From a virus: 64,000 bases of DNA. The DNA lies in IMG/VR virus record IMGVR_UViG_3300022745_000628, positions 96,001 through 160,000 of that record. One strand, 5' to 3'. The notes beneath the pieces were generated by a model. The model was not told where the DNA came from. It saw only the letters and a program-made list of their open reading frames with translations, and did not search any database. Positions 40,811-62,964 of the stretch are shown here, one piece after another. Both the position numbers and the translations under genes were made by a program. The stretch's first letter is position 1. Each line of letters opens with the position of its first letter.

Positions 40811-41136
40811 CAGACCCCGTGTACAAACATTCTGTGGCTAACCTGGACGACCACGCAATTAAATTGCTAATGGCTAATCCAGAAGGTACTAAATTGTTAC
40901 CATGTCTTAGCCGACCTAAGAATGATTTGGGCACGCTACAGCCGGGAAACGCTAATTGTCAGACGTGCCAAGCGCAAAAGAACAAAATTAGAGCGCGAGC
41001 CATGAATATGGCGAAAGATTGCGTGATTAATGCTGACGCTAGCGCAATTTTAAAGCTAAAAACGCTGTTATCCGCGGCTACCATCAAAATACCGCGCACA
41101 TTGCCAAATGGCATGCAACAAGTGTTCGAAAGATAG
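40807..41136 (+). CDS. hypothetical protein with a CxxC motif
   Basis: 109 aa; PCL...CQTCQ; ATGA overlap with the upstream gene. Confidence 0.7.
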   Translation: MTDPVYKHSVANLDDHAIKLLMANPEGTKLLPCLSRPKNDLGTLQPGNANCQTCQAQKNKIRARAMNMAKDCVINADASAILKLKTLLSAATIKIPRTLPNGMQQVFER

Positions 41137-41161
41137 CTAAATTCAGAGGAAAAATGCGTCA

Positions 41162-41199
41162 TATACTCTGCACATACACTTAGCATTTAATTGTATGTG
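41162..41199. promoter_or_regulatory. TATACT box followed by operator-like palindrome 1 (CACATACA-N13-TGTATGTG)
   Basis: Perfect 8-bp inverted repeat at 41171-41178/41192-41199, 3 nt after TATACT (41162-41167). Confidence 0.55.
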
Positions 41200-50258: not shown

Positions 50259-52142
50259 TTAAGTCGACGCTGCTTGCAGCTCATCCGTCCAAACAGTGTC
50301 GTAATCGCCCATTTCTTCGTATTGAATGTCGTTTAAACGCATATGCTGGATAGCGTCTGAAAAATCAGGCCATGCGCGGTTCATGTGCCAGAGCGCGGCA
50401 CATCCGATATTGACAGCTTGCGCAAAGTCGTCCGTAAGCATCGGGTTGCGCGTAATCGTGTAAATGTCGCTACCGCTTCGCGACTCGAGCTTGTTTTCAA
50501 TAAGCGCCAAGAAATCGCGAATTAAGCCGGCATTTTCAGTGTTTACATAGTCATATTTGAAAAATTTGACTTTTTTGTACCTAATCGCGTTACACAGATT
50601 CAATAAAGACCGTGTTTTATCCAAGCGATATCGATCGCGAGCGTGTACTGTGCTGGCTGGTACGTGGCGGATAATGTTGCCTGCCGCCGATCCCACATAT
50701 TCAATAGGAATAATGTGCTGCAGCTTTAAACCAGTACTTACCATGACCGTTTCACGGATAGTTCCAGCCCCAGTGTAATCGTGCGCAATATGCGAACAAT
50801 TAAACGCCTGGTACCAGTGCTGCAACTCTTTAGCTTCTAACACGTGATTTTGCGATTGCACCATCCGCTTTGCCCAGATCACGTGTATTTCGCCGGAAGG
50901 TAAATAGCCTAGCACGGCGATAACTGTAAACGACGTTTGAGACTCTCCGCCTCCGCCCCAATCCACAGCCATAATTTTCATATGGTAATCGCGCAGGTTA
51001 TTTACCATTTTCAAATCCGGCCTTCGCGAGTTATCGAACGGAAGTATGGCCGCACTTCTCAATTCTGTCTCGGTAACTAGCTTTTGTCCGGCGTCGATAG
51101 ACTCGCCTAACACTTCGTTGCAGAATTTTGCGCGCGTCATGTTCCCAGCGCCATTACGCTTAGCCAGCAACAAACTCCATTTGTCCGGATTAGCGTAGTG
51201 CAGCGGCAAGATAACTTGCGGTATGTGGTACCCTGCAAACTCCCAGCGTCGCTCGGGAAAGCGGTGGACCCATCTACCAGTACGAGAGTACAGAAAGTAC
51301 TTGCAACGCGCGCAGCGCAAGCCAGGGCGCTCTTCTGAGATAAATTCGGAGTATTCTCCAAACATGTTATCTAAATCAAATTCAAGCGACGGAATGTTCC
51401 ATTTGTGGCAGCGCGTACATTTGATGACCCATTCGGCTTGAGAACTGTCTCGCCATTTAGCTTCGATAGGATTATCGAGTGTCTTGGGTGTACCGCCGTA
51501 TCCAACCGTTGGAATCGGATCTTGAGCTGCCGACATTGTTTCCATGATGATCGGAAGCAGGTCGATATCAAGATCCTGCAGCTCGTCCAGCAAACAGCGG
51601 TATACGGATAGCCCGCGGATACGATCCGCGTTATTAGATGCGAAACTAAAGAACATCGTAGAGCCGTTGCGAAAGCTACGCTGCAACACGGAGTTCTCTG
51701 TGGATGTGTTGTACCATATCGCTTTAACCGGCGAATTATCGATCAGTGGTCGCACGTAATTGCTAGAAAATCGCCGTATTTGCTCATAAAGCGGCGTAAC
51801 GTGAAGCGTTTTGTAATGAGGTATTGCCGCGGACATCATAACACTGGTAGCCGCCATAGACTGTGATTTAGACAACTGGCGCCCAGCTTTGAGTAACCAA
51901 CTTTTTGGTTGCGCCAGTCGAAAGATAGGCGTGAACGGAAAGTAGTTTTTAAGGCTGTACGGCTTCCCGTTGAGGCTCAAGCACAGTGGCAACAAAACTT
52001 CAAAACTAGGGAGCGCCTTTAATGTGGCGAGCTCCTGAATTTGTTGAAGTCTATCTGTCAATCGCTGACTCTTGGCCGAGTCAGGTTTAGCCCATTCGGA
52101 AACAATGCTATTGATGCGTGATTCTCTTGTAGCAATTTGCAT
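50259..52142 (-). CDS. terL: terminase large subunit (GpA-like)
   Basis: KPYSL..YFPF; Walker A-like KAGRQLSKS; Walker B RGLSVYRCLLDELQD; GYGGTPKT; C-x2-C Zn motifs; nuclease-domain MAVDWGGGG; terminal DDFAQAVN. Confidence 0.9.
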   Translation of the reverse strand: MQIATRESRINSIVSEWAKPDSAKSQRLTDRLQQIQELATLKALPSFEVLLPLCLSLNGKPYSLKNYFPFTPIFRLAQPKSWLLKAGRQLSKSQSMAATSVMMSAAIPHYKTLHVTPLYEQIRRFSSNYVRPLIDNSPVKAIWYNTSTENSVLQRSFRNGSTMFFSFASNNADRIRGLSVYRCLLDELQDLDIDLLPIIMETMSAAQDPIPTVGYGGTPKTLDNPIEAKWRDSSQAEWVIKCTRCHKWNIPSLEFDLDNMFGEYSEFISEERPGLRCARCKYFLYSRTGRWVHRFPERRWEFAGYHIPQVILPLHYANPDKWSLLLAKRNGAGNMTRAKFCNEVLGESIDAGQKLVTETELRSAAILPFDNSRRPDLKMVNNLRDYHMKIMAVDWGGGGESQTSFTVIAVLGYLPSGEIHVIWAKRMVQSQNHVLEAKELQHWYQAFNCSHIAHDYTGAGTIRETVMVSTGLKLQHIIPIEYVGSAAGNIIRHVPASTVHARDRYRLDKTRSLLNLCNAIRYKKVKFFKYDYVNTENAGLIRDFLALIENKLESRSGSDIYTITRNPMLTDDFAQAVNIGCAALWHMNRAWPDFSDAIQHMRLNDIQYEEMGDYDTVWTDELQAAST

Positions 52143-52537
52143 TTTCAGACTTTTTGCATGTTAAAGCAGCTATTTCCAATGTTTTTCACAATTTTTGATT
52201 ATACGCAGTATGCAGTAACGCAATTTGCGAAGTTTTACACGATTTATACAGCGTATCGACTTGTTTGCCTCACTACGAGGTGAAGAAATGGCGTGGTAAA
52301 ATACAACTATCATGCGCATTTCTCGATCACCAAAGCTGTATCAACAACGTAAGCTCCCGATGGATCGGGAGACTCTGCAGCGCACCGGTCCTAGGTTCGC
52401 TCCAGAGTTGAGTCGTGTTCACAAATTACCCATTGAACCTCCGTACCCGTCACCGGATGCGATACGTGAACTGTCGTCCACACAGCCGGATGCTGGTGGT
52501 ACCGTAGTGATTACGGATGTTTAGTCAGCACATTTGA

Positions 52538-52797: not shown

Positions 52798-53238
52798 ATG
52801 CCGTTTGAGCTTGTATTGTTGTACGCACTATATGCCTTAGCCGTTAAGGCAATAGTCCACATCTGGTTATACTCCTCGCTGTTCGAGCCTTTGCAAACAG
52901 CCATGTCAGCGGTATTAGACGCTAGATATGCCGATGCAAAGGAAAGTGCGATTGCAGCTACGCCTAGCGAAGATACTGCGCCGGCTACTGCGTATATCCA
53001 AAATACGGTGACCTGGCCAAATTACATTGCTGGGCGCTTGCACACTTGGATGCTAGAGTTACTCACGTGCCAGCTTTGTTTGTCCGTGCACGTGGCATTC
53101 TGGTATGGCTTGTTAATTATCGTTCCTACCTTAACGTGCTGGTTTAACGGGTCTTGGCTGTTATGGCTGTTCTTGACCCCGACAACCGTATTTTCAATCG
53201 TGACGCTGGTTAATTCACCGAGAATATGGATCACATGA
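52798..53238 (+). CDS. DUF1360-like membrane protein
   Basis: N-terminal TM segment, then ELLTCQLCLSVHVAFW (C-x2-C-x-S-V pattern) and two further TM segments; GAGGA SD. Confidence 0.65.
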   Translation: MPFELVLLYALYALAVKAIVHIWLYSSLFEPLQTAMSAVLDARYADAKESAIAATPSEDTAPATAYIQNTVTWPNYIAGRLHTWMLELLTCQLCLSVHVAFWYGLLIIVPTLTCWFNGSWLLWLFLTPTTVFSIVTLVNSPRIWIT

Positions 53239-53780
53239 AAATTAAAATTCCAAGTGAGGAGCGAATTAGAAATATCGACGTAAATAGCGTGCTGCGCGAG
53301 CTCAACATTGAAAATTGGGATGTGTTGATAATCGGCGATGGTTCTGGAAGTACTTGGCAAAACTACTGCGGTTGGGCAGCGTTAATTATCGATCGAGAAA
53401 CACAAGGAAGGCGCTTAATTGGCGGAAACGCCAATATGGGCAGCATCACTTTTGCGGAAGCAATGCCGTACGTGCAAGCCTTGTCTTGGTTCGATCACAC
53501 CTACGGCTCACGCCGTCTAAAATCCGTGGACAAACTCTCGGTACACATCGTTACCGATTCAACTGCAATCGCTACGATCGGCAGTCAGATCTCAAGTAAA
53601 TCCAAGGATAGTCTGCGAAAACACGCGTACTTAGCTGCTTTTTGTCAACAAATGGCTAAATTCCGTTATGACATTCAATGGCATTGGCTACGCAGGGAAA
53701 TTGCGGATGGAAATCGACTTGTCGATGGTGTTTCTAAAGCGTTGAGGTTGTTTGGAGCAGGCGCGTTGGAATCTCAATGA
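53226..53780 (+). CDS. ribonuclease HI-like protein
   Basis: Catalytic pattern IIGDGSG (Asp), GWAALII, FAEAMP (Glu), VHIVTDS (Asp), QWHWLRR....NRLVD (Asp). Confidence 0.85.
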   Translation: MDHMKIKIPSEERIRNIDVNSVLRELNIENWDVLIIGDGSGSTWQNYCGWAALIIDRETQGRRLIGGNANMGSITFAEAMPYVQALSWFDHTYGSRRLKSVDKLSVHIVTDSTAIATIGSQISSKSKDSLRKHAYLAAFCQQMAKFRYDIQWHWLRREIADGNRLVDGVSKALRLFGAGALESQ

Positions 53781-53811
53781 GATCGATCTGAGTGTTTGAT
53801 ATTAAAGTTTG

Positions 53812-53870
53812 TAAATGTTAAATGTAATGTGAATGTTAGATAATTTAAAATGTTAGATAAATGTAAATGT
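53812..53870. repeat. AT-rich tract with seven AATGT copies (DUE/iteron-like)
   Basis: TAAATGTTAAATGTAATGTGAATGTTAGATAATTTAAAATGTTAGATAAATGTAAATGT; TGTTAGATAA occurs twice. Confidence 0.85.
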
Positions 53871-54026
53871 GTGCGATGATGTAAGTAAACGCGTGGAATG
53901 ATAATGCCAAGTTGGCGCGGGTTGTTTTGATTTGGTTTAGGAAAGCCCTTGAGGGTTGAAGACATGATAGCAAGGAATTTGAATTGGCAACGTACTATTT
54001 TTCAAAATTGCCAAAATAGTTTGCTC

Positions 54027-54160
54027 AACCACAGAAGTAAGACCACTAGGGCTGGTGGAGCCGCCCATAGGCGAGACCACCCGAACCTGACGCTAGGAAG
54101 GTTGTGGTTTTACTTTCTGTGTGTTCTAGCGAACCCACTATGAAATAGGGGGTTTGCTAG
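54027..54160 (+). ncRNA. candidate structured RNA (or ssDNA) element: three-way junction plus hairpin
   Basis: P1 54031-54046/54104-54120; P2 GGTGG/CCACC with inner CGCC-cata-GGCG; P3 AACCT/AGGTT; then hairpin 54126-54160. The non-canonical pairs are G-U on the + strand. Confidence 0.45.
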
Positions 54161-54345
54161 TAGACCGTCCAGAGTCCTCGTTTTGCCTTTTAAAATCGAC
54201 GTACGTCCGGGCTAGAGTCCTCGTTTTTGGTCATGTGTCCTCGTTTTTTACGATTTTCGCCAAAAAACGAGGACTCTGGACGGTCTATAGAAGGGTCGCG
54301 AGGACTCTAGCCCGGACGTAGAATCAAAAACGAGGACACATGACC
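54161..54345. repeat. three perfect inverted repeat pairs in crossed order A-B-C-A'-B'-C' sharing the core GTCCTCG(TTTT)
   Basis: A 54161-54184 / A' 54264-54287 (24 bp); B 54202-54223 / B' 54299-54320 (22 bp); C 54229-54248 / C' 54326-54345 (20 bp). Each pair was checked base by base. Confidence 0.95.
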
Positions 54346-54705
54346 GAGATTGACAGTTAATAAACTAATGTTAACGATTTAAAATTAGTATTTGTGATTG
54401 AAGCTACCACGGTAAAATTTACCGATGCCGCGTTGTCCGACCGTTTTTGTCGCGCACACCCAGGACGTATTTTTGACTTCCAGGCTTCCTTAATTTGACC
54501 TAGGGCGAGTCGAAAATTTTTCAAAAAAAAACTTGCTGCTTAGCCAATATCAGGCTAGTCTGCGGTGGTTTAAGTGCTTTCGCACACTCCGGTTCGCAAA
54601 ATTCGGCAGCGCGCTGGCATCAAAATCCAACGTAAAGCGTATGTACTTAAATTGTGTTATGTAATAACTTTTGTTAGATGCGTTTGTAAGAAAGAAGTGT
54701 GATAT

Positions 54706-55089
54706 ATGGGCACGATGCATTACAGTAATCGCACTATGCGCGGTGTGATTCGGGAATCGTTAGAAGATACGCATAGAGGAAGATTACGCGCGGTGCGTTG
54801 CGTAGAGGCTTGTTGGCGTGGAAATAAATTTAGTGGGATCTTGTGGTCTCGCTGGCAGAATCCAAGTTTTCCAGTAGAGAGCCTTATCATGGCTGACAGG
54901 ATTACGTGTAAAGGTAATGCTATCTGGCATTCCACGTACACGGAGCAGGATGGTCCGTACGCGTACAGTTGTCCGCTAAAGTATTTAGAGGCGCCTACTG
55001 TTTACATGAATCCTTCTTGGCGTGACAGTGTTATCGAATACCACGCTAGAAGGGCGGCTAAGCGTAATGGCAGCTTCGCGACCAAATAA
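54706..55089 (+). CDS. DUF6927-like hypothetical protein
   Basis: 127 aa; TEQDGPYAYSCPLKYLE....NPSWRDSV pattern (E..GP....CP..YL...WR). Confidence 0.55.
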   Translation: MGTMHYSNRTMRGVIRESLEDTHRGRLRAVRCVEACWRGNKFSGILWSRWQNPSFPVESLIMADRITCKGNAIWHSTYTEQDGPYAYSCPLKYLEAPTVYMNPSWRDSVIEYHARRAAKRNGSFATK

Positions 55090-56125
55090 ACGGAGGTTCT
55101 GGCGGCGAAAGCCTGCAGCAGCCCCCGCTCCGGAAACGGCTACACCTGCCGCGACACCAGCAGTAGTTCGTAAATTACTGGACGCGTCTGCGCCAGATAA
55201 TATCAAACGGCTTAAGTTTTTACTCAAACGCCGCTTGATTTTAAGATCGTTGTATCCAAAAGCTAGTATGCGCTACATCGTGTTGCGACAACAGCAAGAA
55301 ACGGTCGATACCTGGTTACGCGTCAAGTTGGACGAGTTACAGACGTTCGGGCGTGCCAGCCGATTTGCGCAGCCTTACATATCTACCGGGCTGGTTAATC
55401 GTATGTCCAATTGCTACAAATTGTACGGACATAAAAACGATTCCACCGGGTACAGAGCGTGTGGCAATCTGTTGCTTTGTCCGTATTGTTATGGGCGGGC
55501 TATGACTAATCGGGCACTAGATTGCTTAACTCGAGTGCATGCGCATCGTGGACAATTACACAACGCACGTTTGGTGGTTATGCGTCGCCGAAGTAAGTCG
55601 CTAATTCTGACGGACAATCACAATGTGTTGGCGCGTGACGCGATAGCTGAAAGCGCCAGGTTGTACAAAGAGCTGCAACTATTTAGACGAGGCTTGCATA
55701 AAAACGATACGGCTCGTGGCGTGTTAGGGTGTCTGGGCAAAGTCGCAATGGATCCGGTGTTTTCCAGACAAGCGCCGATTAATCCGGACGAACTGATCGT
55801 GGCGCCGCCAACACTTTACGAGATAAACACGCAGATTCCGGATATGCAGCAGGTTTATTACAACACTGTCGATATTCTCGTTGTGACCAAAGACGCCAAC
55901 CTTAAGTATTACGGGAATACCGGGTTTACAAAGGCTGTCGATAGGCCACTACAAGATGTCACGCAAGTTGAATTTACAATGGAGTTCGCAAAGATTTTTT
56001 GCTATCCTCGGTATTTATTTCACAACACGGCGTTAGCGCAGCACATGGTGTACTCCGCATACAGCCAGCATAAACATCGACATATTCATTTATCAGGTAT
56101 TTTCAAAAATTTGGACAGGAACTGA
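55067..56125 (+). CDS. protein resembling a degenerate rolling-circle Rep (Zn-finger plus HUH-like fold)
   Basis: RMSNC...RACGNLLLCPYCYGR resembles the Rep_1 N-terminal C..R.CP.C motif; canonical HUH and YxxK motifs are not evident. Likely start ATG 55067 (the track starts at GTG 55022). Confidence 0.45.
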   Translation: MAASRPNKRRFWRRKPAAAPAPETATPAATPAVVRKLLDASAPDNIKRLKFLLKRRLILRSLYPKASMRYIVLRQQQETVDTWLRVKLDELQTFGRASRFAQPYISTGLVNRMSNCYKLYGHKNDSTGYRACGNLLLCPYCYGRAMTNRALDCLTRVHAHRGQLHNARLVVMRRRSKSLILTDNHNVLARDAIAESARLYKELQLFRRGLHKNDTARGVLGCLGKVAMDPVFSRQAPINPDELIVAPPTLYEINTQIPDMQQVYYNTVDILVVTKDANLKYYGNTGFTKAVDRPLQDVTQVEFTMEFAKIFCYPRYLFHNTALAQHMVYSAYSQHKHRHIHLSGIFKNLDRN

Positions 56126-56126
56126 A

Positions 56127-57185
56127 GTGGAAACTAACGAGCAATCTATAGCGGATGCGTTACAGTTGTTTGCAGCCAGGCCGGGGTGTCAGTCGTACGC
56201 TAGCGTGAAAAAGCAGGTAGCTTTGCTAACTGACTATTTATGGCTAAGAAACTTATCACCTACGCTGACATTCGAAGTATTTCTCGATTGTTATGCCAAA
56301 GTAGCCGACTTTGACGAGGCCAACTTAAAGCATCCAAAAGATGCAGTTAAAGTATTGTTGCCAAGTAAAAGCGAGGCAGGCGAGACGTACAACCAGCAAG
56401 ATGTAGTTACTTTGCTAAGTACGTACGTCGATATGGTGCGCAGTGCGGAATTGGCAAATACGCCGGTGCCTGTGACTTTAGCGCAGTTCCTGCAAACGCC
56501 TGCAATACTCCAGGCGTTTAGGAACGGAGATTTTGACACTGTAAAGCAGCCAGTAAACAAGAAAAGTAAAAAACCGGCGCCAGCCGTTAACAACATACCT
56601 ACGTCGGAAGGCGAGCGGTGCATTTTTACCGCCGAAGAAGCGCGAGAACACCGCGGGACACTTTTGTATGCGGACATTAGCTCAAACAGTGCGGTCGTAC
56701 AGGCTGATTCTGGAGAAGTGCACTCTAACGTCATGCTGACAGCGCTTCGGAAGTGTAATGATCCGGTGCGAAAAGGATATACCGACGATCACGGCGTCCC
56801 ACTGCCAATAGGCGGAAAAGGGCGTAAGTTTATACCTAAACCAGAATACGAACGCATTCTGCAGCTGCAGGCACTTAAGATTGCTGTAGGCGTCACTCCG
56901 ATAGGCAGTCCGTTGTATTCGTACGAAATACTGTTTCCAGAGAAAGAAGCAAAAGCGCTAATTGAGGTAATCAACGACGCGCCGCTTTATGTGGACGCCA
57001 GGTTGACGTCGATACATAACAATGATGAAGTGTATTTTGAAGTAGAACCGCGGCAGAATTTACTAGGCGACTATGAATTTGTGCACATGTCGGAAGTCTA
57101 CTCGGTACGCTTGCTAAGTCCGGCGGCCGATGACCCAGAACAGTTACCGACTACGCCTGTGCAGTTCTCAGTTCCGACAGCTTAA
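56127..57185 (+). CDS. hypothetical protein
   Basis: 352 aa, GTG start 1 nt after the upstream stop. Confidence 0.75.
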   Translation: METNEQSIADALQLFAARPGCQSYASVKKQVALLTDYLWLRNLSPTLTFEVFLDCYAKVADFDEANLKHPKDAVKVLLPSKSEAGETYNQQDVVTLLSTYVDMVRSAELANTPVPVTLAQFLQTPAILQAFRNGDFDTVKQPVNKKSKKPAPAVNNIPTSEGERCIFTAEEAREHRGTLLYADISSNSAVVQADSGEVHSNVMLTALRKCNDPVRKGYTDDHGVPLPIGGKGRKFIPKPEYERILQLQALKIAVGVTPIGSPLYSYEILFPEKEAKALIEVINDAPLYVDARLTSIHNNDEVYFEVEPRQNLLGDYEFVHMSEVYSVRLLSPAADDPEQLPTTPVQFSVPTA

Positions 57186-57311: not shown

Positions 57312-58433
57312 ATGAAGAAAATTGCATATGTAGCCGCAGATTTGCATTTGCGGCCGACGGTTTGGGCTCATCATCCGACAATGCGCGGAGATACATACGA
57401 TAGTTTCAAGCAAGTTATTCAGATCGTGCTGAACGATCCGGATAAGTTACCGCTTGTGCTGTTAGGCGACATATTCGATAAAAGTCGTCCAGATTCGGAA
57501 TCCGTACAGGTTTATTTAAGTGGTGCGGAACAGCTACACGCTGCAAACATACCGCTGTACTATATTCAAGGTAATCACGATTTAGCCGATCCTGCCTGGC
57601 CTGCGTTAGCGTCAAACGCTATTTCTTTGCATAACAATTGTGTAACGATTAATGGCAAACGATTTGTCGGGCTGGACTATCAACGCGCTGATCAACTCGA
57701 GACGGCTGTTCAAAACCTAGACCAGTTCAGGCCGTTTGACTATGTATGTGTGCATCAAGCCTGGCAAGAATTGCAAGGCGTTGGCAGCACACACGGTGCC
57801 GTAACAATGTTTAAGTCTGGTGATACGGTGCTCAGTGGCGATTTACATATTCGCATGACGCGTGCAATTAACAATGTGGTTGCGCATTCTCCCGGTTCTA
57901 CGAGTATGCAGTCGATTACCGAAGCGCGAGATAAGTTCGTAACGCTGCTGTGTGATTCGACGGATCCAGATATCCAATTTAGCAGCGTGCCATTAAAAAC
58001 AAGAGGCTTGCTGCAACAGACAATACTTACGGTTAGCGGGTTAGCCACGACTATTCAGCAAATCAAAGCGTTTGCTAAATCGGCCGGGCCAAATAAACCG
58101 CTGGTACACGTGAAATATTCTCCGAACGTCACGGATGCGTTTTCAAAGCTAACCGGAGAGTGTGGCGAGCTCGCCTACTTGTTTTTAAATCAATTAGCAG
58201 ATATCGACGGCAATAAAATTGTAAACATAGATCCGACATCCGCGGACTTGACTGTAAATTTGCGAACAGCCGTGACACTGCTGGCGCAAAACCATTCTGA
58301 ATTTGAAGCCGTTATAGCAGCTAGTCTGTTAGACGCCACTAACGTAGTCACTACCATTGAAAAATTGAAAGAGGATTTTCATGCACTTGCGAAAGCTGGC
58401 TCTGCAAAACTACTGCAACCACAAAAAACGTGA
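57312..58433 (+). CDS. SbcD/Mre11-like (T4 gp47-like) metallophosphoesterase nuclease
   Basis: ADLHL, LLGDIFD, IQGNHD, CVHQ, SGDLHI, SPGS motifs. Confidence 0.92.
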   Translation: MKKIAYVAADLHLRPTVWAHHPTMRGDTYDSFKQVIQIVLNDPDKLPLVLLGDIFDKSRPDSESVQVYLSGAEQLHAANIPLYYIQGNHDLADPAWPALASNAISLHNNCVTINGKRFVGLDYQRADQLETAVQNLDQFRPFDYVCVHQAWQELQGVGSTHGAVTMFKSGDTVLSGDLHIRMTRAINNVVAHSPGSTSMQSITEARDKFVTLLCDSTDPDIQFSSVPLKTRGLLQQTILTVSGLATTIQQIKAFAKSAGPNKPLVHVKYSPNVTDAFSKLTGECGELAYLFLNQLADIDGNKIVNIDPTSADLTVNLRTAVTLLAQNHSEFEAVIAASLLDATNVVTTIEKLKEDFHALAKAGSAKLLQPQKT

Positions 58434-60501
58434 AATCACGTTTGAACGCGGACTAACCGCGATTACAGGGCGTAACGGGTCTGGTAAGTCCAATGTGATG
58501 GACGGTGTGAGATTGGCGCTTACCGGTAAAAGCGCTAACTATGGTAAAAAGTCCGACAACATATGTTGCCTGGCTGGTAAAAAAGAACAAGCGTACGTCG
58601 AACTAGAATTTGAGCACGCTGGCACGAATGCGGTAGTCCGACGCTGGCTTCGCCCAGCACAGCCAGCAACGTTGCAACTAGCTGACGGGTCTTCGTATGT
58701 CGGAGATAACGAGGTGAGTAGAATTCTCGCCGAGTTCGTAGGCGTCGATGATGCAACTATGAATACTGTAGTTTTAGTGGCTCAGCGAGACTTGTTTGGT
58801 TTTATAGATCAGACACCTGCGGTGCGTGCTAAACATTTTCAAGATCTGTTCAAGACAGAGCAGGCCGAGCGTATTTATACAGCGGTAAATAAATACATCA
58901 ACGGTTTTAAAGTTACAGATTGGCAAAGTCTATTTGATTCAGCGTTCGCGCAGTGCTTAGCGGCGCAGCAAACGGCAGCTGAAATTAAGAGACTGAATCC
59001 GACTGTTGCTGTAGAAGCTAATCCGTTTGGCGAAATGCTAGAACAACAGCGTAACCTGTTACATATAGTTCAGCAGAAAAACAACTTGTCGCGTACGATA
59101 CAGGATAAGTCTGTTAGTTTAGGCGAGCAGACGGCATTGCTGGTTACGTTAACTGAACAGCGTGCGAAGTTGCTAGCCGAGTATCAGGTGTTAAATAAAT
59201 CGGTTACGGATTTAAGTACACAGCGTGACGAAGCGTTACAACTTGTCGCTGTTGCAGAAGCTACTAAAAAAGCAAACGCGCAGTATCTTGCGCAAGAAGC
59301 TAAGGTACAAGCTTGTTTAGCGCTTCTGCAAGATAAAATGCCTGTGGCTATGCTTGAAGAACAGGTGGAAAGTCGAGAAATTGTAATTGGAGTGCGAGAT
59401 AGGGAATTAGCAGATCTTATATCTCGTCACGGCACATTGCAGCAATTTCTGCAGAACAGTGTATGCCCGACATGTGGCACTGTTAAAGACAGTACGCCAG
59501 AGCAGTTGGCTGCGAAGCAACAAGAAGCTGGGCGGTTAGCTACTGAAATAGCTGAGTTGCAGCGCATACATACCGAAGATAAGGCGGTATTAGCCAAGAC
59601 AAAGTTGGAGCGCAACTGGTTAAAAGAATACACCGCTAACTATCAGAATACTCGAGCCGTATTAGAGGGTATGGCGCCTCCGCAGCCGGTGGCGGATACC
59701 GCAGCAGCGGAAGCTGTGGCAAATGCTTATGCTGCTGACAAAGCTAAGTTAGCTGCAGTAGTAGCAGCGGGTACAAGTGTAGGAGCCAGTATTGCCGCTA
59801 CAAACGCCACTATCAAAGGTCTAAATGAGAGCGTTGCAGAAGCACAGGCAGCGACGCAGCAGCTTCCAGAGGTGGCATTTACGGCCACAGAGCTCGAGGC
59901 TAAGATAGCAGAGCTTCGCCAGCAATCGGAACAATGGACAACGTTTCGGGCGAATTACGTATACGCACTTCGCCAAATGGAGCAAAAGCAGGCTGAAGTG
60001 GCCGAGTATCAAAAGAAAATAGCCGATAGCAAACTGGACACTAAATGGCTGGAGAGCCTAACGACCGTTAGCGATATTTTTCATCGAGATGCGGCACCTA
60101 AATACGTCGCATTGCAAAACATGCAAATCGTGGAACGCGAGATTAACAAGTTTTTGGAATTGTTCGACACGGAGTATCGTGTGGCTGCGGACGAAAACCT
60201 ATCCTTCGTCGCTAGATTTTTAGACGGGCGAGAGCAGTTAGTAGAGCGGTTATCAGGCGGGCAAGCTGCCATAGTAGCGCTAGCTTTTCGATTATCGGTA
60301 AACACATTGTTTGCTGGATCGTTGGGCTGTTTATTTTTGGACGAGCCCACGGCGTATCAAGACGAACACCACATCCGAGGGTTTGGACCAGTAATTTCCA
60401 AGTTGAAGGAATATTCTGCCAACAGAGGTTTACAATGTATTATCGTTACGCATGAGAAAGACCTTGCACCGCTGTTTGATCAGACGGTAGATCTTGGATA
60501 G
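58381..60501 (+). CDS. SbcC/Rad50-like (T4 gp46-like) SMC ATPase
   Basis: Walker A ITGRNGSGKSN, coiled coils, Zn-hook CPTCG, signature LSGGQ, Walker B FLDEP, H-loop VTHE. Confidence 0.93.
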   Translation: MHLRKLALQNYCNHKKREITFERGLTAITGRNGSGKSNVMDGVRLALTGKSANYGKKSDNICCLAGKKEQAYVELEFEHAGTNAVVRRWLRPAQPATLQLADGSSYVGDNEVSRILAEFVGVDDATMNTVVLVAQRDLFGFIDQTPAVRAKHFQDLFKTEQAERIYTAVNKYINGFKVTDWQSLFDSAFAQCLAAQQTAAEIKRLNPTVAVEANPFGEMLEQQRNLLHIVQQKNNLSRTIQDKSVSLGEQTALLVTLTEQRAKLLAEYQVLNKSVTDLSTQRDEALQLVAVAEATKKANAQYLAQEAKVQACLALLQDKMPVAMLEEQVESREIVIGVRDRELADLISRHGTLQQFLQNSVCPTCGTVKDSTPEQLAAKQQEAGRLATEIAELQRIHTEDKAVLAKTKLERNWLKEYTANYQNTRAVLEGMAPPQPVADTAAAEAVANAYAADKAKLAAVVAAGTSVGASIAATNATIKGLNESVAEAQAATQQLPEVAFTATELEAKIAELRQQSEQWTTFRANYVYALRQMEQKQAEVAEYQKKIADSKLDTKWLESLTTVSDIFHRDAAPKYVALQNMQIVEREINKFLELFDTEYRVAADENLSFVARFLDGREQLVERLSGGQAAIVALAFRLSVNTLFAGSLGCLFLDEPTAYQDEHHIRGFGPVISKLKEYSANRGLQCIIVTHEKDLAPLFDQTVDLG

Positions 60502-60506
60502 GTAGA

Positions 60507-61457
60507 ATGGCGATCAACGAATGCGCAATGTTTTTGGGCAGCATCAAGCCGCGGCATTACGACATTGTGTTTACAAACAAAACAGGTGAAATGGCGCAAA
60601 AAGCAATAGCGTGCGCCAAACTACACCAGTTTTTGGATGATCTGGCTCCTAAGCGCATACGCATGGCGGTGCGAGGAGAGGGAGCTGTTTTCGCATGTAG
60701 TGTCTACGATTGGGCAAGCAAAGCGGAATCGTCGGATTTAGACGGGCCAGCGCGTTGCGAAGTATTTTCGCTTGAGCCTCAGATGTTGGTCTGGTCTGAG
60801 GACGCTAAACACCCGAGTCACTATCGCACATGGACAGCATTAAATAAATGTAGTGCGCCCGGGTCTTTAGGCGGGCCGCATAAGATGACTTATCGAGATT
60901 ACTTGAATATGCAGGTGTTCTCTGGCGATGTTAGCGCTATTAAGTCAGGTTCGTACGACAATTTGTTAGCCAAAGCACATTTTTTATCGCCAAGATTAAA
61001 TTTCAAAGTTTTAACAATAGTTATGCACATTCTCGGAAGTCCGCGCTGGTGGGCAATGATGGACAACGTGACTGGCGGGTACAAAGCAAATATGGTGCTT
61101 GGTATTACGGAAGAAGCTTGGCCCACAATGCCGAAGAATACTGCAATGCGATATAAACATGCACGCGAAGCGTTTAACCAAGCTTTGCGAGAAGGTGTAT
61201 CTGAGGACAACAGCCAGGCTGCCGACGTTTTAGAATCGTTTGGCTGGGCGCGCGGTGCAAAAGTACCGCCTCCGCAAGCCTTAGAGTTGTTTGTAAATTA
61301 CTTTATGGCTGCCTGGCTCGAATGGTCAGAAGCGTCGCTAACTTCCGATAAAATAGACAGGCAATTTTTAATACCAGAGCACTACATGCCAAAGCAGTAC
61401 GTTGCAGCTTACAAAGAGAGATTCAGTGGCTACCGTAATAATAAAACGCCTGAATAA
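60507..61457 (+). CDS. hypothetical protein in the recombination module
   Basis: 316-aa ORF between the SbcC-like and helicase genes. Confidence 0.75.
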   Translation: MAINECAMFLGSIKPRHYDIVFTNKTGEMAQKAIACAKLHQFLDDLAPKRIRMAVRGEGAVFACSVYDWASKAESSDLDGPARCEVFSLEPQMLVWSEDAKHPSHYRTWTALNKCSAPGSLGGPHKMTYRDYLNMQVFSGDVSAIKSGSYDNLLAKAHFLSPRLNFKVLTIVMHILGSPRWWAMMDNVTGGYKANMVLGITEEAWPTMPKNTAMRYKHAREAFNQALREGVSEDNSQAADVLESFGWARGAKVPPPQALELFVNYFMAAWLEWSEASLTSDKIDRQFLIPEHYMPKQYVAAYKERFSGYRNNKTPE

Positions 61458-62964
61458 TTTGATTCAGTTGAGCATCGAGGGAGATTTGCCGCTGCCAGAA
61501 AACTTGGTGGCGTTGCTACATCCGCATCTTTCGTATGAAAAGAAAGAATTCCTACGCGGACAGGACACGCAGTTGCTGCCGAATATGGAATTTCCAATTG
61601 TGCGCAGAAATACGCGAGGACGCATGCGGTTTACACCGGTGTCTATGTATGAGCTGCGAAGCGGCGCACTTATTACAGGCTACGGAATGCTAACAAAGAT
61701 AGTTAGTGTTCTTGATAAAGCCGGAATCGGATCCAGATACGTAGACCTTACGCCGCCACACGAGGATCCAACGATATTCGAACCGGATTGGGCTAATCTT
61801 GCTAAGAAAGTACCAACGTTACGCCCTAAACAGCTCGAGTGTTTACAACGCTTGGCCGGAACAGACTGCGGGATAATTGCAGCTGCGCCTGGGTTTGGTA
61901 AAAGTTTTATGGTTGAAGCCATATGCCATTTGTATCCCAGAGCCCGGATACATTATGTCGTGCCTCAGAAAGACGTTGCTCAAAAAGTAGCGGCTGTTTT
62001 AACCGGCAAGTTTCCAAATGTTGGCGTGTACGGCGGAGGCAGCCATAAACCAGGAGAGCGTATCACGGTGTTTACGTCTGGAAGTGTGCATCATTCCGAC
62101 GGAGCCGCCGATATCTTGCTGTGTGACGAAGTCCACGACATGATGACCGATAAAATGATTGAGAAAATCACGGCTACATGGCGAACAACTCGCAATTACG
62201 GGTTTACGGCCACACCTAAAGGAAGAATGGACGGAGCGGACGCGCAATTAGAATTGTATTTCGGACCGCAGATCTTTTATTTGTCTTATCAAGAGGCGTG
62301 CGAGTTAGGTTTAGTAGTGCCTATCGTAGTACGTTGGTTGCCGATAAACATGGATATCAATCCGTGCGCTGGTAAAGAAGACGTGCGCAAAATGCGGTTA
62401 GGAATTTGGCGAAATGAGGCACGTAATCGGGCTATAGCCCAGGATATACGCAATAACTACCCCGATCCGGATACGCAGGTGCTGGTGTTATGTGCGACAG
62501 TAGAGCACGCTATTCATCTGTGGCAGTTTCTACCAGAGTTTAAGATGTGTTTTTCAGATCAAGACATGGGAAACATAGAGTGGTATCAAAAAACGCACAT
62601 GTTGCCGCACAACTTTGAAATTGTGACTGGCAAAATACGGGAGCGAATGCGTACGGAGTTCGCAGCTGGCACATTAAAGCGTGTGATAGCTACAGACGTA
62701 TGGACAACTGGTGTGGACTTTTCAAGTCTTCAAGTGTTGTATCGAGTAGACGCGCGCAGCTCTCAAATTAAAGATGTGCAAGCGCCAGGTCGGGTTAGTC
62801 GTATCAGTCCGGACACTGGTAAGCAGTTTGGAGAAGTGATCGACTGCTGGGACCGGTTCGATCCCACCTTCCTGCGCAAATCGGAAGGTAGACGCCGTAC
62901 TTACAAGAGTTTAGGCTGGAAACAAACGACCATATCGCCCGACGGCCAACTCACGTTGTTTTAA
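61402..62964 (+). CDS. superfamily 2 DNA helicase (UvsW/Rad25-like)
   Basis: Q-motif LRPKQ, Walker A AAPGFGKS, LCDEVH, motif III FTATP, motif V TTGVDFSSL, motif VI QAPGRVSR. Confidence 0.9.
   Translation: MQLTKRDSVATVIIKRLNNLIQLSIEGDLPLPENLVALLHPHLSYEKKEFLRGQDTQLLPNMEFPIVRRNTRGRMRFTPVSMYELRSGALITGYGMLTKIVSVLDKAGIGSRYVDLTPPHEDPTIFEPDWANLAKKVPTLRPKQLECLQRLAGTDCGIIAAAPGFGKSFMVEAICHLYPRARIHYVVPQKDVAQKVAAVLTGKFPNVGVYGGGSHKPGERITVFTSGSVHHSDGAADILLCDEVHDMMTDKMIEKITATWRTTRNYGFTATPKGRMDGADAQLELYFGPQIFYLSYQEACELGLVVPIVVRWLPINMDINPCAGKEDVRKMRLGIWRNEARNRAIAQDIRNNYPDPDTQVLVLCATVEHAIHLWQFLPEFKMCFSDQDMGNIEWYQKTHMLPHNFEIVTGKIRERMRTEFAAGTLKRVIATDVWTTGVDFSSLQVLYRVDARSSQIKDVQAPGRVSRISPDTGKQFGEVIDCWDRFDPTFLRKSEGRRRTYKSLGWKQTTISPDGQLTLF

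Follow-up and report, generated by a model that had tools for sequence, protein, structure and literature searches.

The subject of this analysis is a gene-free gap at 53781-54705 in a 64,000-nt stretch of phage DNA, together with P0001, a zinc-ribbon protein encoded shortly downstream of it. The stretch (the window) comprises bases 96001-160000 of a 193,796-bp single virus contig, IMG/VR record IMGVR_UViG_3300022745_000628, and positions are window positions unless stated otherwise. The reading that we favor, with a probability of roughly 0.45, is that the gap holds an iteron-type origin or a replisome-assembly site which is read by a catalytically dead derivative of the Rep_1 proteins of plasmids. 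Both the binding of P0001 to the repeats in the gap and the start of replication there are points that we infer. An earlier, sequence-only reading of this DNA had listed an RNase HI-like gene, an AATGT tract, stem-loops, six repeat cores, A/T tracts and a Rep-like gene, and all of these parts are present where it had placed them.

The gap and its crossed repeat array

With 925 nt the gap is the largest stretch free of open reading frames (ORFs) in the genome, the runner-up measuring 392 nt (193.8 kb examined). It contains six copies of GTCCTCG, at 54174, 54217 and 54237 on the + strand and at 54268, 54299 and 54331 on the - strand, each set in a repeat unit with the core (A/T)G(A/T)GTCCTCG. 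Genome-wide the sequence occurs 14 times, which is below the ~20 copies expected by chance; 6 of the 14 lie in the gap and 8 are scattered. Since six cores are clustered here and the remainder is at chance level, the signal belongs to a single locus, and a role of the cores as general promoter or terminator motifs was ruled out.

The six units form three pairs with 100% complementarity (24, 22 and 20 nt) in the crossing order A B C A' B' C' (Table 1), and these pairs are the sole spaced perfect inverted repeats of at least 16 nt in the genome. Runs of T5-6 or A5-6 adjoin five of the six cores. The core centers are 43, 20, 31, 31 and 32 bp apart, that is, near whole helical turns, and at 10.4 bp per turn their phasing gives a resultant of 0.96 (p ~0.002 against random placement). 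AT-rich tracts flank the block, one ~280 nt to its left, which is a candidate unwinding or bending element, and one abutting its right side. Clustered repeats, helical phasing and AT-rich flanks, the features by which we judged an iteron-type origin, are thereby all found.

According to the mechanism that we propose, the gap would most likely be a double-stranded, protein-bound cis element, acting as the phage replication origin or as a replisome-assembly site, and P0001 would be its sequence-specific binding protein. The six cores on one helix face could allow several copies of P0001 to be wrapped or stacked, and the flanking AT-rich tracts would serve duplex opening for the helicase, primase and family A polymerase encoded downstream. 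The replication genes run past the window (L026 1753-8602, corresponding to genome C1 159753-166602), where a protein of 819 aa, whose LAGLIDADG insert may be an intein, is followed by a DnaG-like primase and by a 1116-aa fusion of a uracil-DNA-glycosylase-superfamily domain, a 3'-5' exonuclease and a family A polymerase (PolA). With the primase and this fusion downstream, the gap therefore heads a replication/recombination block.

The Rep-like zinc-ribbon protein

A word-indexed search of 5.8 billion proteins with P0001 returned only the protein itself, and HMMER, run in full over 1.84 billion representatives, contributed only two further matches, both repetitive and evidently spurious. Pfam gave no match to P0001 even at E 10, PHROGs gave none either, and searches of PDB sequences with single proteins and with profiles found nothing. 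In the ESM Atlas, P0001 lies beside clusters that partly carry Rep_1 (feature score 0.95-0.96), with structural template-modeling (TM) scores of 0.53-0.56 over ~240 residues, on a model with a predicted local distance difference test (pLDDT) value of 0.57. A tblastn search of the loci of relatives caught the CPxC region at the same genomic position, and these matches made a 21-sequence family alignment possible. The members share 15-21% identity with P0001, and only C116, C132, C138, P139, C141 and R144 are invariant. The resulting zinc-ribbon pattern, C116 followed by C132-x5-C138-P139-x-C141-x2-R144, is present in 21/21 members and also in the Rep proteins of pUB110, pC194 and seven other plasmids.

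The nuclease motif is lost. The columns aligned with Rep_1 motif II (hPHfHvL) hold no His, no His is conserved anywhere in the 21-member family, and outside the zinc ribbon the 21 members have no conserved His, acidic residue or Tyr. Y312 of P0001 aligns with the catalytic Tyr of the Rep_1 K-Y helix; L011 and the L008 clade share this Tyr, and L006 has Leu instead. Two HUH-like strings in P0001, HAH (157-159) and HIH (338-340), were rejected since they are not conserved in relatives, and an active HUH nuclease was rejected because the motif is absent.

When the 21-member family was compared by hhalign with nine plasmid Rep_1 proteins (pC194, pUB110 and seven others), the match had an E-value of 6.3e-4 over 226 colinear columns; it took in the zinc ribbon, the strand that succeeds the long helix (GWFR vs GF/YxR), the K-Y helix with Y312 and the C-terminal Gly. 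Eight controls with reversed, column-shuffled or unrelated alignments gave E-values of 0.34-0.96. P0001 resembles Rep_1 (PF01446, pC194/pUB110) in its Cys...Cys-x4/5-Cys-Pro-x-Cys-x2-Arg ribbon, in a weak colinear profile match that includes the G(W/F)xR strand, and perhaps in its predicted fold (TM ~0.55). In contrast to Rep_1, the phage family lacks the HUH histidines and a Pfam match, the Tyr is not universal, and the P0001 gene sits in fixed synteny in a 194-kb tailed-phage genome, not in a small plasmid. These alignments suggest that P0001 is probably a distant Rep_1 derivative whose nuclease function was lost; membership of the Rep_1 family cannot be claimed.

In evolutionary terms, P0001 would descend from a Rep_1-type rolling-circle initiator, having kept the Cys4 zinc ribbon and apparently the overall fold. 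With the metal-binding HUH histidines lost, it should therefore bind DNA, not nick it. A domesticated Rep as origin-binding protein, as the sequence-only reading had put it, is plausible for a Rep_1-like protein with a zinc ribbon and no HUH motif. It has a precedent (PMC6668415): the large T antigen of polyomaviruses and E1 of papillomaviruses bind their origins through HUH domains that have been inactivated. The likeness is one of concept, in that a rolling-circle nuclease domain stripped of its signature motifs would be the origin binder of a double-stranded DNA virus. However, large T and E1 belong to another HUH branch (viral Rep fused to a superfamily 3 helicase) and to eukaryotic viruses, and P0001 has no fused helicase.

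The location and mode of origins in large phages with their own RNA polymerase are largely unknown, and in the literature that we searched, no pairing of this kind between a protein and its sites came up for large phages. The present locus offers concrete candidates for both members of a pair, an array of sites spanning 185 bp and a protein of 352 aa. If our reading is true, tailed phages, like small DNA viruses of eukaryotes, turned an initiator that nicks DNA into an origin binder without catalytic activity, and the series of large gap, zinc-ribbon gene, partner gene, Mre11 and Rad50 would be an origin marker for an uncultured phage group.

Relatives and competing explanations

The locus was compared with those of L006, L008, L014-L016 and L011, at protein identities of 27-54%. 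The shared order is terminase (leftward), small genes, RNase H, small genes, large gap, Rep-like gene, partner gene (product of 350-400 aa across the group), Mre11 and Rad50. L006, with proteins ~30-54% identical, has a gap of 1.16 kb, which an additional GHKL-ATPase gene separates from the Rep-like gene, a place taken in this phage by a 127-aa gene; the gaps of L008 and L014-L016 measure 630-720 nt, and L011 keeps the order in part around a gap of 387 nt. The repeats are specific to each lineage: ACATCTTAGCGGTATGT in four direct copies and one inverted copy directly after hairpins in L006, TGCGGTGAATGACAC in three copies in L008, and the palindromic CTTATTTnnnnAAATAAG in four copies in L011. 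A conserved place, unrelated repeats and a fast-diverging adjacent binding protein form the pattern of a site and its cognate protein. Likewise, divergence of the Rep-like sequence around invariant zinc-ribbon residues is the pattern expected for a protein that co-evolves with its sites. A mobile Rep element was rejected on account of the conserved synteny. The sequence-only reading had joined RNase H, gap and Rep-like gene in one system; the linkage of gap and Rep-like gene, each gap with its own repeats, stood up in the relatives, but RNase H adjoins the gap in this phage only and is separated from it by 1-6 genes in the others.

Iteron-type origins with an adjacent initiator gene are represented by lambda ori with the O protein and by plasmid iterons of the P1/pSC101 type. 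The phage locus resembles them in having copies of a short site in a gene-free or initiator-linked region with AT-rich flanks, a predicted DNA-binding-protein gene close by, a place at the head of replication genes, and sites and protein that diverge together between relatives. Unlike in those origins, the phage sites are arranged as three pairs that converge and cross, each with private flanks that match perfectly, and P0001 is unrelated to O or to the winged-helix initiators of the RepA type. No DnaA boxes were seen at the phage locus. The O-iteron complexes of lambdoid phages are treated in PMC7466680.

Our reading should be held with some caution, since several results weigh against it. 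Neither the 13-nt flank of A nor the 8-nt flank of C has a match outside its own partner, and simple iteron binding does not explain the crossing order together with such perfectly matched private flanks. The spacing of the repeats in L006 and L008, by arithmetic on their positions, is not in integral helical turns, and the last palindrome of L011 overlaps the start codon of the Rep-like gene; operator sites of an autoregulated gene would yield the same comparative pattern. The homology to Rep_1 is weak, with an hhalign probability of 28% and an E-value of 0.078 when the zinc ribbon is left out, and Pfam has no match in any of the 21 family members, so that the Rep_1 gathering score is not reached. 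AlphaFold models of P0001 were unusable (pLDDT 34 from the single sequence, 41 from the 21-row alignment), and a Foldseek search with the pLDDT-41 model returned nothing beyond noise. Finally, the sequence-only reading had named an inflection of the cumulative GC skew as a check, and no turn is present at the site. Along the genome the skew climbs near-monotonically, its only dips falling where genes are oriented leftward; in a phage, the absence of a turn is weak evidence either way.

Among the alternatives, a transcription control region is the one that we take most seriously, unlikely as we consider it to be. The gap would then end the upstream small-gene operon and carry an operator array at a replication/recombination promoter, with the zinc-ribbon protein acting as an autoregulator or switch and not as an initiator. 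In line with this, a sigma-70-like site, TTAATA-17-TAAAAT (54357-54385), abuts repeat C' and faces the downstream genes, the L011 palindromes lie at and over the start of the Rep-like gene, and the L006 gap has a hairpin followed by a T-run that we read as terminator-like. Moreover, a repressor with its operators would account just as well for lineage-specific sites that adjoin a rapidly evolving binding protein. On the other hand, 925 nt and six phased sites far exceed a normal operator, the next start codon lies 360 nt downstream of the repeats, and shuffled sequence yields at least as many promoter-like matches as the region itself. A recurrent promoter-like motif of this phage, AGCTAAAT-N15/16-CGTCATATAT(A/T)GTG, has nine same-strand copies genome-wide, but AGCTAAAT-N16-CGTCATATAT is absent from the gap.

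An element acting as RNA appears to us distinctly improbable. Replication of ColE1 is primed through RNA II and RNase H, and oriF and oriG of T4 are R-loop origins. By analogy, one or more structured non-coding RNAs over 54024-54350 could include an R-loop primer processed by RNase H, as the sequence-only reading had proposed. The phage shares with these systems an RNase H gene, here upstream, and a strongly folding non-coding stretch near replication genes. On the + strand, nearly the whole of 54020-54356 folds, giving three stem-loops (RNA z -10.7), the third being a long three-segment hairpin in which A/C', B/B' and C/A' are paired through the shared core, and a foldable block of ~230 nt is kept in the gap of the L008 clade. 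However, no promoter-like site was found upstream of the stem-loops, nor did a transcript or an antisense RNA come to light, and a scan of Rfam gave no family, the sole match being a spurious microRNA hairpin. The opposite strand of 53870-54165 folds nearly as well (z -3.7 vs -4.0), the single-stranded DNA of 54150-54356 folds too (z -6.8), and the helical phasing of the cores argues for duplex DNA. RNase H1 is described as a usual primer-removal enzyme of large phages carrying multisubunit RNA polymerases (PMC7824862). The downstream helicase, which had been called UvsW-like, proved to belong to superfamily 2 (SF2) and has no sequence match to T4 UvsW or to any other solved structure; nor is a promoter of the MotA type known in this phage. 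With no support from promoter, Rfam, skew or UvsW, and with RNase H separable from the gap in relatives, the ColE1/T4 R-loop part of the sequence-only reading amounts to speculation. Phasing, folding on both strands and the lack of promoter, Rfam and phage-motif matches instead favor a duplex protein-binding array.

The nested fold likewise does not explain why the flanks of A and C match their own partners. A bolder version of our reading holds that a clade of ~190-kb freshwater phages starts replication with a catalytically dead descendant of plasmid Rep_1, and that this protein reads a three-pair crossed array able to switch between the nested long hairpin and the alternative perfect pairings. 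The phages would thereby parallel polyoma- and papillomaviruses, whose origin-binding HUH domains are inactivated; we regard this version as doubtful.

As to the conserved foldable block of the L008 clade (L008 5968-6200, L014 3375-3610, L015 3358-3592 and L016 3376-3610), the gap of this clade also holds an invariant 50-nt box with two copies of CGTGTAGAT; in four sequences so similar, covariation is too thin for an RNA call.

We give little credence to a packaging site (cos/pac), in which the converging repeats would flank a 12-15-nt center cut by a gpA-type terminase, as in lambda cosN/cosB or P1 pac. A gpA-family terminase gene does lie 2 kb away, its proximity is conserved in relatives, and three plus three converging sites surround a short center. 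A 1,941-bp public contig (L003, Logan SRR7106578) begins exactly at 54184, the last base of repeat A, perhaps because the repeats broke the assembly, perhaps because the DNA physically ends there. Yet the repeat site is spanned, with identical sequence, by long contigs of two samples (197.5 kb and 5.7 kb), the linkage is to the Rep-like and replication genes and not to a small-terminase gene, and in the relatives the repeats, which are direct arrays or palindromes, share no layout of a cut site. All public contigs with P0001 are 100% identical and show one arrangement of the locus, and covariation is therefore not assessable from them.

Least credible of all is a rolling-circle module, active or decayed, with single-strand origin hairpins, a double-strand origin and a nicking Rep, or a DNA switch that inverts or shuffles through the crossed repeats: the Tyr aligned with the catalytic Tyr of Rep_1, the single-strand folds reminiscent of single-strand origins, crossed inverted repeats that could recombine, and TTGATATTAA at 53796, which we take to recall the nick-site core of phiX174/pC194, speak for it, but the HUH positions hold no His, no His, acidic residue or Tyr is conserved outside the zinc ribbon, as described above, the Rep-like gene is syntenic and vertically inherited, not mobile, no recombinase gene lies near the locus, and all public copies share the one arrangement.

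RNase HI-type gene, gene neighborhood and minor observations

Table 1. Coordinates of features at the candidate locus and of neighboring genes (window positions).
Feature	Position	Strand	Basis or description
gpA-family large terminase	50259-52142	leftward	family match; 2 kb from repeat block
RNase HI-type gene (P0004, 184 aa)	53226-53780	+	homologue profile, conserved residues, Atlas model
AT-rich tract	53795-53880	.	78-82% AT; seven AATGT copies (53814-53870); 17-nt tandem AATGTTAGATAA
Stem-loop 1, long Y-shaped helix	54027-54125	+	fold prediction
Stem-loop 2, 11-bp hairpin with inner 4-bp stem, abuts repeat A	54126-54160	+	fold prediction
Repeat A	54161-54184	+	24 nt; private flank, core and T-run
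Repeat B	54202-54223	+	22 nt; private flank, core and T-run
Repeat C	54229-54248	+	20 nt; private flank, core and T-run
15-nt center between converging sets	54249-54263	.	loop and stem top of inner C:A' hairpin
Repeat A'	54264-54287	-	perfect reverse complement of A
Repeat B'	54299-54320	-	perfect reverse complement of B
Repeat C'	54326-54345	-	perfect reverse complement of C
Second AT-rich tract	54350-54400	+	80% AT at 54355-54400; sigma-70-like site inside
Small gene, 127 aa	54706-55089	+	no family match in Pfam or PHROGs
Rep_1-like Cys4 zinc-ribbon protein P0001, 352 aa	55067-56125	+	Atlas, family alignment, hhalign
Partner gene, 352 aa, conserved	56127-57185	+	directly 3' of Rep-like gene, also in L006 and L008 clade
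Mre11/SbcD-like gene	57312-58433	+	family scans
Rad50/SbcC-like gene	58381-60501	+	family scans
SF2 DNA helicase (ResIII plus Helicase_C)	61402-62964	+	family scans

P0004 itself has no direct match in Pfam, PHROGs or PDB. Its 15 homologues are 35-52% identical to it, and five of them match PF00075 (best E 4.5e-8). In the alignment D38, E78 and D111 never vary, and D167 and H153 hardly do; we take D38/E78/D111/D167 to correspond to the catalytic D10/E48/D70/D134 of the E. coli enzyme. The ESM Atlas model of P0004 (predicted TM score 0.82) gives a TM of 0.79 on RNase_H clusters. Both the Asp-Glu-Asp-Asp residues and, via the homologues, the family match were thus found, so that P0004 is by its sequence an RNase HI-type enzyme, and it is probably active. 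A homologue with 47% identity lies at a contig end in a bacterial metagenome-assembled genome (L007 4161-8492), with a tyrosine integrase gene 2.6 kb away and clpP genes near; this locus might represent a related prophage and hint at the host. In the phage, the stop codon of the RNase H gene is immediately followed by TTGATATTAA (53796-53805), which occurs 2 times in the genome vs 0.6 expected.

The source contig has 47% G+C and no terminal repeat, and ~233/266 of the rough gene calls are on its + strand. The candidate locus sits just right of a gene-divergence point, with the + strand operon starting at 52312. The 352-aa partner protein had no match in scans of Pfam and PHROGs, and tblastn with the 127-aa gene gave no match in the relatives examined. 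Searches of cultured phages by blastn and tblastn returned no relative of the locus, as did the scans of viral contigs, and a tRNA scan was negative. The nearest terminases among cultured phages are those of Salmonella phage Arash and of Vibrio phages, at 28% identity, and the layout of Arash differs.

The recurrent AGCTAAAT/CGTCATATAT motif probably represents a phage-specific promoter class. Its copies are found at window positions 41112-41170 and at genome C1 positions 13800, 14891, 25839, 45069, 48445, 49007, 49703 and 176431; the upstream box reads ACCTAAA in two of them, and a hairpin and a TTTTTTAGCTAT box often precede the motif.

In L004 (2015-3384), a distant 188-kb relative, an ORF with HNH/Endonuclease VII-like motifs, recognized by eye, lies right after the terminase divergence point and is followed by a gene-free stretch of ~780 nt that contains GTTTTGGACCCT three times. 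L009 (10573-12810) and L010 (7451-10768) are near-identical relatives in which an intein- and HNH-bearing gene measures 745 aa and 1105 aa, respectively, a difference that suggests a gene split or an insertion; this gene adjoins one with a faint match to the ribonucleotide reductase alpha chain.

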